A stretch of DNA of 64,000 bases from a virus, in IMG/VR virus record IMGVR_UViG_3300022888_000583; one strand, given 5' to 3'. Of the stretch, positions 5,561 to 11,466 are shown one piece after another. The notes under the pieces were generated by a model. That model made no database searches and was not told where the DNA came from. It worked only from the letters and a program-made list of their open reading frames with translations. Each line of letters opens with the position of its first letter. Position 1 is the stretch's first letter. A program made the position numbers and the translations under genes.

Positions 5561-6655
5561 TTATTTCATTAAATGGGGCTTGGCTTCAATCTGGCCCGCA
5601 CTTGTTACTCGGACAAAATCACAATTGGCCTGAAATGTTTCAATATCAATTGCCCCACAATAACTCATGGCCGATTTTAATCCCTCTACTTGTTCCTTTA
5701 AAATTCTCTTAGCGGAACCTTTAAATTGAACTCGTACACTATTTCCTTCGATGTGGCTATCCTCACCCCTGTCCAATTTAGATGACAACGATGCGGAACC
5801 TCTATATTCCTTATACAGTTGTTCATTTGGATATTTACCCTCACGTTTGAACGTGCCGGGAGTTTCTTTTGTGCCCGCCAATAATGAACCAAGTACAACC
5901 GTACTTGCCCCAGCTCCAATGGCCTTCGCCATATCACCCGGAGTAGTAATTCCACCATTTGATGAAATTGGAACGTGTCCTCCGGCCCACATGGGTTCTC
6001 CACCACCTTGAGTATATACTCTGGTCATGGATTCCACGCATTCCTGTATGGATGAAATCATAGGAATTCCAACACCCGCTCTAATACGTGTTTCACATAA
6101 TGATCCCCCACCAATTCCAACATGAATCCCGTCAGCTCCCCACGCAATCAAGTCCCTAACCGCATCGGCGGTCGCGACCGTTCCCACAAATAATTCAGTT
6201 TGAATGCTGGTTGATTTAAGAAATTTAATCATATTTTTAACACCGATGTGATGCGCGTGTGCAACATCAATCATGAGAATATCAACTCCAGCATTTATCA
6301 ATCTTAAGGCCCGCTCTTTGTCGGCATCCTTGGCACCGATTGCGGCACCAATTGGATACTTGTGAATTTCCAATTCTTCATCGGTATAATCGGCAATCAA
6401 TTGGATGGTCTTTTCGACTTCCTCAACTTGATCATCAATTGACATAAATCTATGTATGAATCCAACCCCACCCTTTTGATACATTAGAGCGGCCATTCTA
6501 GATTCACATATGGAATCCATAGCGGTCGCGATTATTGGAATATCCAATATCCAATTAGTAGTGATGTGGGTCGAAATATCACAATTAGATCGGGAATCAA
6601 CTTCCGAAAATTTCGGTATAATTGAAACATCGTCAAATGTTAAAAATTCTTTCAT
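5561..6655 (-). CDS. guaC: GMP reductase / IMP dehydrogenase-family enzyme (GuaC-like, no CBS pair)
   Basis: GIGGGSLCETR and GIPMISSIQEC resemble GuaC GIGPGSVCTTR; 364 aa. Trp is encoded only by TGG. Confidence 0.7.
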   Translation of the reverse strand: MKEFLTFDDVSIIPKFSEVDSRSNCDISTHITTNWILDIPIIATAMDSICESRMAALMYQKGGVGFIHRFMSIDDQVEEVEKTIQLIADYTDEELEIHKYPIGAAIGAKDADKERALRLINAGVDILMIDVAHAHHIGVKNMIKFLKSTSIQTELFVGTVATADAVRDLIAWGADGIHVGIGGGSLCETRIRAGVGIPMISSIQECVESMTRVYTQGGGEPMWAGGHVPISSNGGITTPGDMAKAIGAGASTVVLGSLLAGTKETPGTFKREGKYPNEQLYKEYRGSASLSSKLDRGEDSHIEGNSVRVQFKGSAKRILKEQVEGLKSAMSYCGAIDIETFQANCDFVRVTSAGQIEAKPHLMK

Positions 6656-6656
6656 T

Positions 6657-7283
6657 CTAAACGCCGTATTTCAGAATTACTTTACTTAGGATAACGTCTC
6701 CACCCTTTTCGGAAACTTCATTAACCGCGGCTTCTGAACCTTCTTGGGTTACGCCGGCCATTGCATCTAAAACCATTACTACTTTGAATCCCTCATCAAT
6801 TGCGTGTAAGGCGGTGAATTTGACACAATAATCTGTTGCCAAACCAACCACATAAACCATATCAATCAAATTGGTTCTAAGTGTATCGGCCACTTCCGTA
6901 ATACCACTTCCATCATTTTCTCTAAATGCACTGAAAGGATGTAGGTTTTTATCTTCACCTTTTGAAAGTAAAATATGAACATCACCAACATTGAAATCCT
7001 TATGAAATTCAGCACCTTTAGTACCATTAACACAATGGACAGGCCATAGCATTTCTGGAATGCTATTCATAACACCCATTGCATAATCATCTAAACCTTG
7101 ATTCTTTGCAAAACTCAATGAATCTTTTGGATGGTAATCCCCAGACGCTAAAATCAAATCAAAATCGCCTTTTTCCATTAATTCATTAATGGTAGGAACG
7201 ATTGCATTTGCACCGTTAACACCCATAGCACCACCTTCACAAAAATCATTTTGTAAATCTACAACAAATAATGCTTTTCTCAT
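6657..7283 (-). CDS. pncA: nicotinamidase (isochorismatase family, PncA-like)
   Basis: N-terminus ALFVVDLQNDFCEGGAMGV is typical of PncA; 208 aa. Confidence 0.75.
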   Translation of the reverse strand: MRKALFVVDLQNDFCEGGAMGVNGANAIVPTINELMEKGDFDLILASGDYHPKDSLSFAKNQGLDDYAMGVMNSIPEMLWPVHCVNGTKGAEFHKDFNVGDVHILLSKGEDKNLHPFSAFRENDGSGITEVADTLRTNLIDMVYVVGLATDYCVKFTALHAIDEGFKVVMVLDAMAGVTQEGSEAAVNEVSEKGGDVILSKVILKYGV

Positions 7284-7284
7284 A

Positions 7285-8620: not shown

Positions 8621-8668
8621 TCATACCTGAAGATACAAGATTTAATTGTAAAAGTCAAGCGTTATTTT
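8621..8668 (-). promoter_or_regulatory. copy 1 of the conserved promoter/leader motif (minus orientation), upstream of nadE
   Basis: Reads CATACCTGAAGATACAAGATTTAATTGTAAAAGTCAAGCGTTATTTTT. Confidence 0.55.
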
Positions 8669-10290
8669 TAATACATTCCACCCATTTGTTGTCCTGCCAT
8701 TGGGTTGACAGGTTCATTATCGCTTGGGATTTCACTAATTGCACACTCTGTTGTCAATAGTAATCCAGCAATTGAAGCGGCATTTTCTAAAGCTGCACGA
8801 GCAACCTTAGTTGGGTCAATAATACCATTTTCAATCATATTTTTGAATTCTTCTGCTCTAGCGTCGAACCCAAAATCATCCGTGCCCTCTTTTACTTTAA
8901 GCACCACTACTGAATCTTCCCAGCCAGCGTTCTTAGCGATTTGGCGAATCGGAGCTTCTAAGGCTCTTTTCAAAATGTCAACTCCTAATTGTTGATCACC
9001 CTCTAATTTCAAGTCTAATTTCTGTGATGCCCGCAATAATGCAACTCCACCACCGGGAATAATTCCCTCATCCACAGCAGCTCGAGTAGCGTGAAGTGCG
9101 TCATCTACCCTATCTTTTTTCTCTTTCATCTCAACTTCAGTAGCGGCACCGACATTTAAAACGGCTACCCCACCTGACAATTTAGCCAGACGTTCTTGCA
9201 GTTTTTCCCGGTCATAATCGGAAGTTGTGTTTTCAATTTGCACTTTCATTTCATTGATACGATCTTCAAGAATTTTACTATCACCATCACCACCGACAAT
9301 AATTGTTCTATCCTTATCGATAATGATATTTTTACATGTGCCCATCATATCTAGATCAGCATTTTCAAGTTTGTAACCCTGTTCTTCAGAAATCACGGTT
9401 GCACCAGTTAAAATGGCTAAATCTTCCAACATAGCTTTTCTACCGTCACCAAATCCTGGTGCCTTAACTGCCGCAATATTCAATGTACCTCTCAATTTAT
9501 TTACAACCAAAGCTGCTAGAGCTTCACCTTCAACATCTTCAGCTACAATCAAAATCGGCTTTTTAGTAGCGGCCAATAATTCCAAAACCGGCAGAATTTG
9601 CTGTACTCCGCCAATCTTTTTATCATGCAGTAAAATTACCACATCGTCCAATTGAACTTCCATTGTTTCCGAATTGGTTACAAAGTATGGTGATAGATAG
9701 CCCCTATCAAATTGCATGCCCTCGACCGTCTCAAGATAGGTATCGGCCGTATTTGATTCTTCAACCGTAATAACTCCGTCTTTTCCAACCTTATCCATAG
9801 CATCAGCGATAATTTCACCAATTTCTATATCGTTATTTGCGGACACAGTTCCAATCTGTGAAATCTCTTCTTGGCTCTGAACATCCCTGCTCATATCCCT
9901 AATAATTTCAATTACTTCTTTTACACCAGCATCAATCCCACGTTTAATTTCCATTGGATTTGCACCAGCGGTGACATTTTTCAATCCTTCTTCGACAATT
10001 GACTGGGCCAATACTGTGGCGGTTGTCGTGCCATCGCCAGCAATATCGGATGTCTTTGACGCTACATCACGTACCATCTGGGCACCCATGTTCTCTCTTG
10101 GGTCTTCCAATTCAATTTCCTTGGCGACTGTTACACCGTCTTTAGTAATGTATGGAGAACCAAATTTCTTCTCAATTACTACATTTCTGCCTTTGGGTCC
10201 CAATGTTACACGCACTGCATTAGCAAGAGTATCAACTCCAACCTTTAACTTTTCTCTAGCTTCCCTATCAAATTCTATATATTTTGCCAT
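8668..10290 (-). CDS. groL: chaperonin GroEL (Cpn60)
   Basis: 540 aa; [16 protein letters not shown]; C-terminal GGM-like tail. Confidence 0.95.
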
Positions 10291-10308
10291 TTGATTTTCC
10301 TTTTATTT

Positions 10309-11466
10309 TTATTGTAATCCTAACGTGAATTTGCAATTTTCTATTGCTTCTTGTGAATCACTTGTGTTTTTTCCTACATTGTCTGACAATTTAACCGCGT
10401 GAATTTTTCTTGAATTCCTATCGTAAATGCCACTTAATTTTATAACCATGTTCAATGGTATTACTCCAGTATCGTTGGTAAGGTTAGTACCAATTCCAAA
10501 TGAAGTTTTGATTTTATTTCTAAAATGTTCCGTTATTTCTACGGCTTTTGGTACATTCAATCCATCTGAAAATACTATCGTTTTTGACATTGGATCGATT
10601 CCCAATGATTTGTAATGCTCGATAATCTTCTCACCAAACTCAATTGGGTCTCCACTATCGTGCCGAACTCCATCGAATAATTTAGCGAAATACATATCAA
10701 AATCCTGTAAAAATACGTCTGTTGTATATGTATCTGTTAATGCGATACCCAAGCTTCCTCGGTATGTATCACTCCATTTTTCTAAAGATTTGTATGTAGC
10801 TGACTGATATCCGTATTTTGCTCCGTGAAACATAAACCATTCGTGGGCGTGTGTTCCAATTGGAGTAATATCGAATTGTTCAGCTAAATGTACATTACTT
10901 GTACCAACCAAAACGTCATGTAAATTCTCAATAACCAATCGATGAATTTCATAAGAACGCCGGCGCCGTGTACCAAAATCAGCCACCTTGATTTCCGAAC
11001 CTTGAATCATATTCCGTTTTGTGAGAATGCTATTCATTGTTTCGGGCATGTTTGGTAGTGATGATCTTAGATATACTTCAGAAATAATAGCCATTAAAGG
11101 TACTTCCCAAAGGATAGTTCTATACCAAGGTCCCATTATTGACAGTTCCAATTCGTTATTTTCATTGGAAGTCATCGTAACTTCACTTGGATCAAATCTA
11201 TATCCACTTAAAAAATCAAGATACATTCCATCCAAGTATGGAGCCTTATCTTCTAAGAATTTCCGTTCCTTTTCAGTTAATGACAATGTTGCCATAGCAT
11301 TAATTTCACGCTGAATCTCTTCAACGTGTTCGTGGGTGAATATGTTATTCTCTGGATTTCGATTTTTAAATCGGTATTCTACTATTGTATTTGGATAGTG
11401 CTTAACAACCGCGTTCTGCATCGTGAATTTGTACATATCATCATCTAAAATAGATTTTATAATCAT
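10309..11466 (-). CDS. pncB: nicotinate phosphoribosyltransferase
   Basis: 385 aa; N-terminus ILDDDMYKFTMQNAV matches PncB LDTDAYKLHMQQAV. Confidence 0.8.
   Translation of the reverse strand: MIIKSILDDDMYKFTMQNAVVKHYPNTIVEYRFKNRNPENNIFTHEHVEEIQREINAMATLSLTEKERKFLEDKAPYLDGMYLDFLSGYRFDPSEVTMTSNENNELELSIMGPWYRTILWEVPLMAIISEVYLRSSLPNMPETMNSILTKRNMIQGSEIKVADFGTRRRRSYEIHRLVIENLHDVLVGTSNVHLAEQFDITPIGTHAHEWFMFHGAKYGYQSATYKSLEKWSDTYRGSLGIALTDTYTTDVFLQDFDMYFAKLFDGVRHDSGDPIEFGEKIIEHYKSLGIDPMSKTIVFSDGLNVPKAVEITEHFRNKIKTSFGIGTNLTNDTGVIPLNMVIKLSGIYDRNSRKIHAVKLSDNVGKNTSDSQEAIENCKFTLGLQ

Follow-up and report, generated by a model that had tools for sequence, protein, structure and literature searches.

Here we show that a 64,000-nucleotide stretch of viral DNA (IMG/VR record IMGVR_UViG_3300022888_000583; hereafter the window, which covers only part of a phage genome) carries apparently intact genes for three of the four steps leading from nicotinamide to nicotinamide adenine dinucleotide (NAD+), namely pncA, pncB and nadE, together with a Nudix hydrolase gene whose product is predicted to split ADP-ribose (ADPR). 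We consider it probable that these genes serve a large tailed phage as an auxiliary module for NAD+ recycling, following the deamidating (pyridine-nucleotide-cycle, or Preiss-Handler) route. The function that we favour, and that the gene content makes plausible, is NAD+ homeostasis during infection, of which counter-defence would be a special case.

The module lies within seven tightly packed minus-strand genes across 5561-12133, which were identified using Pfam, PHROG and NCBIfam and include a gene of the inosine 5'-monophosphate dehydrogenase (IMPDH)/guanosine 5'-monophosphate reductase (GMPR) family, referred to below as IMPDH-like. From this gene to def, the gaps between the seven are 1, 1, -8, 59, 18, and 13 nt:

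5561-6655, minus strand: IMPDH/GMPR-family gene, 364 aa (PF00478, 4.7e-95)
6657-7283, minus strand: pncA, nicotinamidase/pyrazinamidase of the isochorismatase family, 208 aa (NF008623)
7285-7797, minus strand: Nudix hydrolase gene, 170 aa (PF00293, 4.6e-12)
7790-8608, minus strand: nadE, single-domain NAD synthetase, 272 aa (NF010587, TIGR00552)
8668-10290, minus strand: groEL, chaperonin, 540 aa (TIGR02348)
10309-11466, minus strand: pncB, nicotinate phosphoribosyltransferase, 385 aa (TIGR01514, NF003704)
11480-12061, minus strand: def, peptide deformylase (PF01327, 2.2e-26, residues 30-171)

The def gene, which lies just beyond the 5561-11466 interval and directly upstream of pncB, probably starts at Met25 of its longest open reading frame (ORF); it is called as 193 aa in metagenome records.

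The curated cut-offs of NCBIfam were taken as the pass/fail standard for gene identity; they are passed by PncA, PncB, NadE, and GroEL, and reached by neither the Nudix nor the IMPDH-like protein. A preliminary description of this DNA, made from its letters alone, had called PncA, PncB, NadE, Nudix, GroEL, and def genes here, and positions, strand and family matches agree with those calls. PncA scores 177.6 bits on the equivalog model NF008623 (cut-off 174), is closest among solved structures to the nicotinamidase 2wt9 (143 bits), and also aligns with 3pl1, deposited as pyrazinamidase/nicotinamidase PncA. Its catalytic Asp9, Lys108 and Cys153, which align to solved nicotinamidases, and its metal ligands Asp49, His51 and His83 are all present and are conserved in phage homologues. 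PncB scores 447 bits on TIGR01514 (cut-off 270) and 484 bits on NF003704 (cut-off 379), with 2im5 as its closest solved structure (326 bits) and only a weak match (2.7e-14) to the PHROG family of nicotinamide phosphoribosyltransferases (NAMPT). In its GTHAHEW motif, His208 is aligned with the AHEW histidine of solved nicotinate phosphoribosyltransferases (NAPRTases), which we take to be the phospho-histidine, and the GTRRR and RHDSGD motifs are kept across 13 phage homologues; an identical protein is indexed in 162 blocks of a metagenome collection, where it occurs on contigs of 50-200 kb. NadE (259 bits on NF010587, cut-off 255; 228 bits on TIGR00552, cut-off 64) carries GLSGGIDS as its PP-loop (residues 29-36), a sequence kept in 12 phage homologues, and is closest to the solved structures 2e18 and then 3fiu (147 bits), both deposited as NH3-dependent NAD+ synthetase. 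It is a single domain without a glutaminase domain and would therefore be NH3-dependent.

Based on its best structure and family matches and its full Nudix box, the Nudix protein appears to be of the ADP-ribose/ADP-sugar pyrophosphatase type, as had been proposed. Among NCBIfam models it scores highest on NudE (ADP compounds hydrolase) and next on YffH/AdpP and ADP-ribose diphosphatase, without reaching the cut-off of any of them; its closest solved structures comprise 5c7q (a chain deposited under the name NudF protein), ADP-ribose pyrophosphatases, and NUDT5, and the alignment to NudF-type ADP-ribose/ADP-sugar pyrophosphatases begins at residue 2. The Nudix box (G67-x5-E73-x7-R81-E82-x2-E85-E86-x-G88) is intact and conserved, with G67 to Y89 fitting GX5EX7REUXEEXGU at each specified position. 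On careful alignment, catalytic residues are in place in PncA, PncB, NadE and the Nudix protein, and the first three, checked against solved structures and phage homologues, appear to be catalytically intact.

The arrangement is retained in related viruses. Three IMG/VR contigs (L005, L006, and L013) keep the order orf128-orf233-orf91-def-pncB-groEL-nadE-nudix-pncA-IMPDH-like, with identities from 47% (PncA) to 83% (GroEL), while L140/L141 (a 134-kb contig) have def-pncB-orf73-nadE-nudix-orf55-pncA-IMPDH-like-SIR2-YopX at 44-70% amino-acid identity; def is kept upstream of pncB in both L006 and L140. PncA is only 44% identical in the most distant of the three lineages, yet gene order is retained. 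Given that the order pncB-(groEL)-nadE-nudix-pncA-IMPDH-like is kept in three diverged lineages, we argue for selection on the set, and the five genes pncB, nadE, nudix, pncA and IMPDH-like, as comparison of these contigs shows, travel together in the clade. In a wider range of viruses, pncB and nadE are paired in at least 13 further contigs, with or without pncA, nudix or nadD. These include clusters with pncA (L002, L007, L008/L009, L014, L021), clusters of the form pncB-nudix-nadD-nadE, in which NadD is a NadD-type cytidylyltransferase (L016-L018), and a 458-aa NadD::NadE fusion adjoining pncB (L020:1859-3235). In the 735-kb huge phage LR756501 (L002, LR756501.1 420266-441429), pncB, nadE, a TonB-dependent receptor gene, PnuC, a NadR-like NMNAT/kinase and pncA lie within ~8.5 kb, and this phage combines uptake genes of the type found in the NAD+ reconstitution pathway NARP3 (see below) with Preiss-Handler genes.

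This recurrence bears on whether the genes have a concerted NAD+ role at all, or are unrelated auxiliary genes gathered in a host-takeover region, with PncA as a general amidase, the Nudix protein in house-cleaning or RNA decapping, and the IMPDH-like protein in guanine supply. The array does include two genes unconnected with NAD+ (def and groEL), the IMPDH-like gene is found without NAD genes in other large phages, and the Nudix substrate is only predicted. However, PncA, PncB and NadE belong to the same pathway and each passes equivalog-level models, many independent viral contigs, with varied neighbours, link them as well, and the NAD genes are contiguous without groEL in L140. We therefore regard a chance assembly of unrelated genes as quite unlikely.

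Bacterial relatives show no comparable cluster. None of the 80 closest bacterial pncB loci (50-55% identity), 79 of which carry the label Bacteroidota or that of a genus within it, has nadE or a Nudix gene within 6 kb, and pncA occurs in 4 of the 80. As the nearest bacterial pncB loci are unclustered, capture of a host operon by the phage was rejected; the cluster was instead assembled in phages.

Two further observations concern the viral relatives. In the pncA and pncB clusters of L007, L008, L014 and L021, NadE is of another, divergent type that reads STDNYTE and FWTLHGDV where the first type has GTGNKTE and YFTKWGDG. Directly downstream of the IMPDH-like gene, L140 (11017-11730) and L141 (10285-10998) encode a SIR2-family protein (PF02146, 237 aa). 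SIR2 was looked for at this position in the window and none was found; the 966-nt stretch past the IMPDH-like gene contains an HNH endonuclease readable only if TGA encodes tryptophan, along with a small hydrophobic ORF.

That the locus is phage-borne, as the preliminary description had assumed, is supported by several features of the window. All 41 tRNA genes lie on the minus strand between 16585 and 33774 and cover most amino acids; a GOLLD RNA (RF02032) lies within this array at 27785-28257, minus strand (190 bits, gathering score 150, E = 5e-52), with a tRNA-Arg(tct) embedded in it at 28107-28180, and a tmRNA with the tag GTNYAYPVAA is found at 4236-4594, minus strand. PHROG families in the window include T4-type RNA ligase, and Mom-like, Tpt1, ClpP, HSP20 and GroES genes are present alongside Seg-like and HNH homing endonucleases. 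Genome fragments of the same clade were sought by using as a probe a 31-nt pattern derived from a promoter-like motif of the window (described below), which retrieves 29 contig stretches from IMG/VR and 20 from JGI. Major head protein, tail sheath and UvsX are encoded among the larger ORFs of motif-sharing contigs, as are polynucleotide kinase, a DnaB-like helicase, and NAD-dependent DNA ligase. Within the phage collection, PncB is best matched by uncultured huge phages (462-735 kb), and pncB relatives occur in IMG/VR and on huge-phage records of 405-735 kb. Megablast of 5000-13000 against the phage collection gave no match, the clade being absent there at the DNA level.

An ordinary bacterial chromosome, or a mis-binned bacterial contig, is the alternative to be weighed against phage origin. 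The 64-kb window contains no capsid, terminase or structural genes, and some "phage" database hits are really bacterial contigs. These include the hits of PncB, PncA and the IMPDH-like protein to "Acinetobacter phage MD-2021a", which were rejected as phage: the record inspected, CAKLQH020000008.1, carries thiL, nusB, ribH, serB, phoBR and pncB, and the hits were disregarded because these surrounding genes are those of an ordinary bacterial chromosome. CAKLQF020000012.1, CAKLQH020000013.1 and CAKLQF020000016.1 (genes annotated pncB, ydjB or guaB) are probably false phage hits likewise, and the same artefact probably accounts for several short Listeria, Staphylococcus and Enterococcus phage records. 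Against a bacterial locus stand the occurrence of 41 tRNAs, tmRNA and GOLLD RNA in one array, the 15 copies of the promoter-like motif, the T4-type RNA ligase, the Seg-like and HNH homing endonucleases, and the major head and tail sheath proteins encoded by motif-sharing contigs. In addition, no bacterial or archaeal PncB exceeds 55% identity (one genome per species, 185,579 species), whereas viral contigs reach 66%. Taken with the unclustered bacterial pncB loci, these findings make a bacterial chromosomal context scarcely credible; the source is a large tailed phage, probably with a Bacteroidota host.

Established pathway knowledge, applied to the enzymes identified by sequence, suggests how the module would operate. 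PncA would deamidate nicotinamide to nicotinate; nicotinamide is, to our knowledge, released in all reactions of NAD+-glycohydrolases, sirtuins, ADP-ribosyltransferases, and Tpt1. In an ATP-driven step, PncB would convert nicotinate and phosphoribosyl pyrophosphate (PRPP) to nicotinate mononucleotide (NaMN), a host NadD would adenylylate NaMN to nicotinate adenine dinucleotide (NaAD), and the phage NadE would carry out the ammonia-dependent amidation of NaAD to NAD+. The Nudix hydrolase would split ADPR into AMP and ribose-5-phosphate, returning these to ATP and PRPP. The net outcome would be that NAD+ is kept available through infection for phage consumers, i.e. the Tpt1/KptA RNA 2'-phosphotransferase of the window (23068-23607, minus strand), and NAD-dependent DNA ligase and SIR2 in relatives. 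By the same chemistry, the module would also act against host NAD+-depleting defences; defence NADases yield the same two substrates. We infer the substrates of the module enzymes, the use of a host NadD, the timing of expression, and the physiological role from gene content and context.

Several points weigh against NAD+ recycling as the role of the module, the first being that the pathway is incomplete as encoded: neither the window nor ~340 kb of fragments from the clade yielded an adenylyltransferase. Neither NadD, NadM nor NadR is among the 25 Pfam families listed (of 36 matched) for 66 ORFs of the window, and CTP_transf_like is likewise absent from them. Five phage NadD/NadR sequences were used to make a hidden Markov model (HMM) and, one by one, as phmmer queries. 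These searches found nothing in the six-frame translated window or in L005, L006, and L013, and nothing in the partly redundant clade fragments (207 kb from IMG/VR and 132 kb from JGI, the latter translated with code 4), the best E value over all targets being 0.15. The preliminary description had stated that the route lacks only NadD and had proposed a wider search for nadD or nadM; the first holds for the window, and the second, extended to the clade fragments, recovered neither. Within the sequence sampled, the pathway would rely on host NadD. Secondly, an NAD-dependent DNA ligase lies behind the same promoter motif in the contig L038, and DNA ligase releases nicotinamide mononucleotide (NMN) rather than nicotinamide, so PncA would be of no direct service to it. 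Thirdly, ADP-ribose pyrophosphatases carry a signature past the Nudix box in which Pro at about +15 is followed by GG and an acidic residue. The window and L006 have SNSGGSDEE, with Ser replacing Pro 15 residues past the box, while ASPGYSSE, with Pro, is found in L016/L017 (beside nadD); as all family scores also fall below cut-off, ADPR is a predicted substrate. Finally, the function of the module as a whole is read from sequence and genomic context.

The lack of an encoded NadD also raises the question of whether NadE could act as an NMN synthetase, converting NaMN to NMN and bypassing NadD, with host NadR or NadM completing the pathway. In addition to the lack of NadD with the module, the second-best solved relative of NadE, 3fiu, at 147 bits, is presumably the Francisella tularensis enzyme said to prefer NaMN, although its depositors named it NH3-dependent NAD+ synthetase. 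Conversely, the top solved relative 2e18 and others of the short subfamily are deposited as ordinary NAD+ synthetases, and an adenylyltransferase would still be required. Homologous phage NadE proteins, moreover, stand beside NadD (L016-L018) or are fused to it (L020), and NaAD is therefore implied as substrate. An NMN-synthetase role is thus very improbable, and we retain deamidating NAD+ recycling completed by a host NadD.

While the chemistry may be approximated from the enzymes, what drives selection for the module is a separate matter. Dedicated counter-defence, in which NAD+ would be rebuilt from the nicotinamide and ADPR freed by Thoeris, DSR, SIR2-HerA and SEFIR effectors rather than for self-supply, overlaps with NAD+ homeostasis, the difference between them being what selection acts on. 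PncA and the Nudix enzyme would act on exactly the two compounds that defence NADases produce, NARP1-3 show that phages gain by rebuilding NAD+, and sigma-70-like promoters together with 27 TGG and no TGA codons in ten genes would fit early expression. Nevertheless, the route requires four steps, at least two ATP plus PRPP, and a host NadD, and would be slow beside NARP1 and NARP2; a Nudix ADPRase destroys ADPR with no direct re-use; linkage to the phage NAD+ consumers SIR2 and Tpt1 favours self-supply; and a deamidating route used as counter-defence was not found reported in the literature searched. We hold dedicated counter-defence as a tentative possibility. Somewhat more doubtful is the fuller proposal that the locus represents a fourth, deamidating NAD+ reconstitution pathway that defeats NAD+-depleting immunity by recycling both cleavage products, in which the Nudix enzyme might cleave ADPR-derived immune signals, itself a speculative idea, and the IMPDH-like enzyme (of the CETR type described below) might be functionally connected to the pathway. 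NAD+ homeostasis during infection remains the function we favour.

Comparison with known systems places the module among published phage NAD+ gene sets. NARP1 consists of Adps and Namat, NARP2 of NAMPT and NMNAT, and NARP3 of PnuC and NadR (PMC13464706). As described there, all three sets of phage genes restore NAD+, with NARP1 and NARP2 starting from the products of defence NADases, and they differ from the module in having no enzyme in common with it, PncB being a NAPRTase rather than NAMPT or Namat. Among the 25 Pfam families listed for ORFs of the window there is no PRPP-synthetase family, as would be expected for NARP1, and no PnuC or NadR family, as would be expected for NARP3; the NadR-containing HMM was also negative. 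Of the NARP2/KVP40-type parts, neither NAMPT nor NMNAT was found in the window (NCBIfam and Pfam; HMM and phmmer for NMNAT). The PnuC-NadR pair does stand beside pncB, nadE, and pncA in LR756501, unlike the window. In Vibrio phage KVP40, NAD+ synthesis is paired with ADPR hydrolysis, the Nudix domain of its NatV protein being an ADP-ribose pyrophosphatase. KVP40 resembles the module in encoding a route from nicotinamide, but its route is a two-step, amidated one via NMN with its own adenylyltransferase, in contrast to the four-step, deamidated route here, for which none is encoded in the sequence sampled. Its NadV (NAMPT) and NatV (NMNAT and Nudix domain) constitute a functional nicotinamide salvage pathway, as far as it is cited in later work (PMC11662467, PMC13573597).

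The closest parallels are found in jumbo phages. A 2024 survey in Microbiome described 174 NAD-jumbo phages with complete salvage or Preiss-Handler pathways, defined as phages of >200 kb that encode one or more NAD+ synthesis pathways in full, and also mentioned phage pncA and NAD+-consuming enzymes in jumbo phages (PMC11662467). Among these, Kuafu_71 has a pncB-nadD-nadE cluster called complete, and hosts of the Kuafu clade are predicted to be Bacteroidota (PMC11662467). NAD-salvage islands occur in Flavobacterium jumbophages (PMC13573597), a PncA-like gene has been noted in phage G (PMC12484599), and jumbo phage PA5oct, itself without such genes, induces a host pncA-pncB1-nadE operon (PMC7318152). 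The NAD-jumbo phages share with the window large phage size, clustered nicotinate-to-NAD+ genes, mention of pncA, and NAD+ consumers in the same genomes. The Kuafu_71 cluster differs in having nadD, which is absent here from the sequence sampled, whereas pncA and an ADP-ribose-type Nudix gene are integral here; both are known from genes alone. The Pseudomonas aeruginosa pncA-pncB1-nadE operon, the one induced by PA5oct, unites the same three enzymes, but the phage set adds Nudix, IMPDH-like, def and groEL genes, and the nearest bacterial PncB relatives (Bacteroidota) are unclustered.

The preliminary description had held that this enzyme set differs from known phage sets. This is correct with respect to NARP1-3 as described in PMC13464706, with which there is no overlap; it does not extend to phages in general, given the published Preiss-Handler jumbo phages (PMC11662467), the NAD-salvage islands (PMC13573597), and many similar IMG/VR contigs, several with nadD. 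The locus is a further example of jumbo-phage NAD+ salvage gene sets and no new type of system, and as an annotation finding it adds little to the published jumbo-phage surveys. An arrangement without nadD in which pncA and an ADPR-type Nudix gene are integral is, however, not singled out in PMC11662467, PMC13573597, PMC12484599 or PMC7318152. NAD+ is a central contested metabolite of phage-host conflict, for which three rebuilding pathways have been demonstrated, none of them deamidating. A conserved and widespread module of this kind is a clean candidate for asking if a four-step bacterial route with a borrowed host NadD can serve a phage, and it bears on whether such genes feed phage NAD+ consumers (SIR2, Tpt1, ligase) or counter defence.

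Transcription of the array was approximated from a ~45-nt, clade-specific promoter-like motif, AAAATAACGCTTGACTTTGTCA-n6-TCTTGTATCTTCAGGTATGA, of which the window has 15 copies against 0.43 expected, all oriented with the genes. Its nearly invariant parts are an A-rich upstream stretch, TTGACT, a 17-nt spacer, TATCTT, and then CAGGTATGA, and it stands ~10-30 nt ahead of a ribosome-binding site and start codon:

8625, 13405, 14373, 20303, 25199, 29199, 33536, 33634, 38457, 40899, 41916, 48048, 51883 and 52244, minus strand: copies of the motif
52395, plus strand: copy of the motif
8625-8667, minus strand: promoter-like motif in the 59-nt gap from the groEL stop to the nadE start (A-rich, TTGACT, 17 nt, TATCTT), scoring as a sigma-70-type site
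13405-13449, minus strand: promoter-like motif ahead of orf128 and next copy on the upstream side of the array orf128-orf233-orf91-def-pncB-groEL, conserved in L006

The divergent pair at 52244 and 52395 marks a strand switch, and an ATG within the motif is a false start in the longest-ORF calls of orf128 and the R2K gene. A variant of the 8625-8667 motif is present at the same place in L006, while in L140 the sole motif-like site found is upstream of the whole array. A hairpin scan found no terminator-like hairpins in the minus-strand intergenic gaps from 13404 to 5561, the single minus-strand hit in this interval (5907-5890) being inside the IMPDH-like gene.

These features modify the earlier proposal that the NAD genes are co-transcribed with groEL and def. 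For pncB, co-transcription with both is probable; the nadE-nudix-pncA-IMPDH-like genes would have their own start site plus possible read-through, with a promoter motif between groEL and nadE, and in L140 the NAD genes are contiguous without groEL. GroEL itself scores 817 bits on TIGR02348 (cut-off 582). Its gene stands between pncB and nadE, as it does in L005/L006/L013, and is absent from the L140/L141 array, which has a 73-aa ORF in its place. Because that array keeps the NAD genes without groEL, groEL is a lineage-specific insert and takes no part in NAD chemistry.

The IMPDH-like protein spans the IMPDH Pfam model PF00478 end to end (4.7e-95), yet falls below every NCBIfam IMPDH and GMPR cut-off, with 255 bits on TIGR01302 (cut-off 481) and 184 bits on the GuaC model NF003966 (cut-off 344). 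Compared with solved structures, it scores ~223 bits with CBS-deleted IMPDHs, 220 bits with 6lk4, a CBS-containing chain named guanosine 5'-monophosphate reductase, and 138 bits with GuaC-type GMPR. In alignment with E. coli GuaB and GuaC, it shares the TIM-barrel catalytic domain and the catalytic Cys loop, Cys187 being kept in GGGSLCETR. It differs in lacking the CBS pair, in having CETR rather than CTTR (the active-site loop of E. coli GuaB/GuaC being GPGS(I/V)CTTR), in its sub-cut-off scores, and in a flap ~10 residues shorter than that of E. coli GuaB and without the Arg-Tyr dyad. In IMPDH, this dyad is needed to hydrolyse the covalent intermediate. Across the 120 best metagenomic homologues (41-100% identity, 300-405 aa), CETR occurs in 113, and the dyad in none of the 118 flaps found. 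CETR-clade homologues were found in metagenomes only, some on phage-like contigs of 160-190 kb and some from Tara samples.

By these comparisons, the protein belongs to a distinct CBS-less "CETR" clade. The short, dyad-less flap is compatible with a reductase-type mechanism; the label "GuaC-like reductase" of the preliminary description is not affirmed, however, as the protein is closer overall to IMPDH catalytic domains and fails all the NCBIfam cut-offs. It most likely accompanies the module in this clade as an enzyme of purine interconversion, and not as a step of NAD+ synthesis. A general phage linkage of the gene with NAD genes was considered and rejected, as outside this clade it is not NAD-linked: its homologue in LR756508 is near def only, that in Microcystis phage Mel-JY01 is among replication and glycosyltransferase genes, and those on marine contigs of 167-191 kb are near MazG and def. 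Since homologues occur elsewhere without NAD genes, the gene is treated as a constant neighbour rather than a pathway step.

In the phage clade, TGA is read as tryptophan (genetic code 4). The ORF at 575-1687 (minus strand) can encode one product of 370 aa only when three in-frame TGA codons are translated as sense codons, and L006 aligns with it end to end, with TGG at two of them. The same TGA/TGG interchange is seen in a Seg-like GIY-YIG/NUMOD3 endonuclease (15275-15970, minus strand), and L140 PncA (9229-9834) and IMPDH-like (9866-11014) genes have one TGA each, exactly at a tryptophan of the window protein. A further site of this kind is:

4598-5071, minus strand: further TGA-as-tryptophan site

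In the ten genes of the def-to-IMPDH-like array, all 27 tryptophan codons are TGG and stops are TAA or TAG. No tRNA with anticodon tca is found among the 41 tRNAs of the window. Standard-code ORF lists fragment several window genes.

Next to the Seg-like endonuclease, a nucleoside 2-deoxyribosyltransferase-like protein (14792-15274, minus strand) is 95.5% identical to its L006 counterpart, and the endonuclease itself 91%, compared with 47-83% for neighbours; this looks like recent co-conversion around a homing endonuclease. A protein of the related Pfam family Nuc_deoxyri_tr2 is encoded immediately upstream of pncB in LR756500.

Other genes of the window include an RNA-repair and NAD-linked set scattered through it, comprising the Tpt1/KptA protein (23068-23607), a T4 Rnl1-type RNA ligase (45913-46998), a cREC_REC cyclic-phosphate-processing protein (18395-18787), and a DUF4326 protein (21093-21398), all on the minus strand; an RlaP-family nucleotidyltransferase is also present. 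Folding and turnover genes are found away from groEL, namely GroES on the opposite arm (58823-59101, plus strand) and, on the minus strand, HSP20 (36156-36614), ClpP (18787-19374), and a MoxR-type AAA ATPase (37285-38424).

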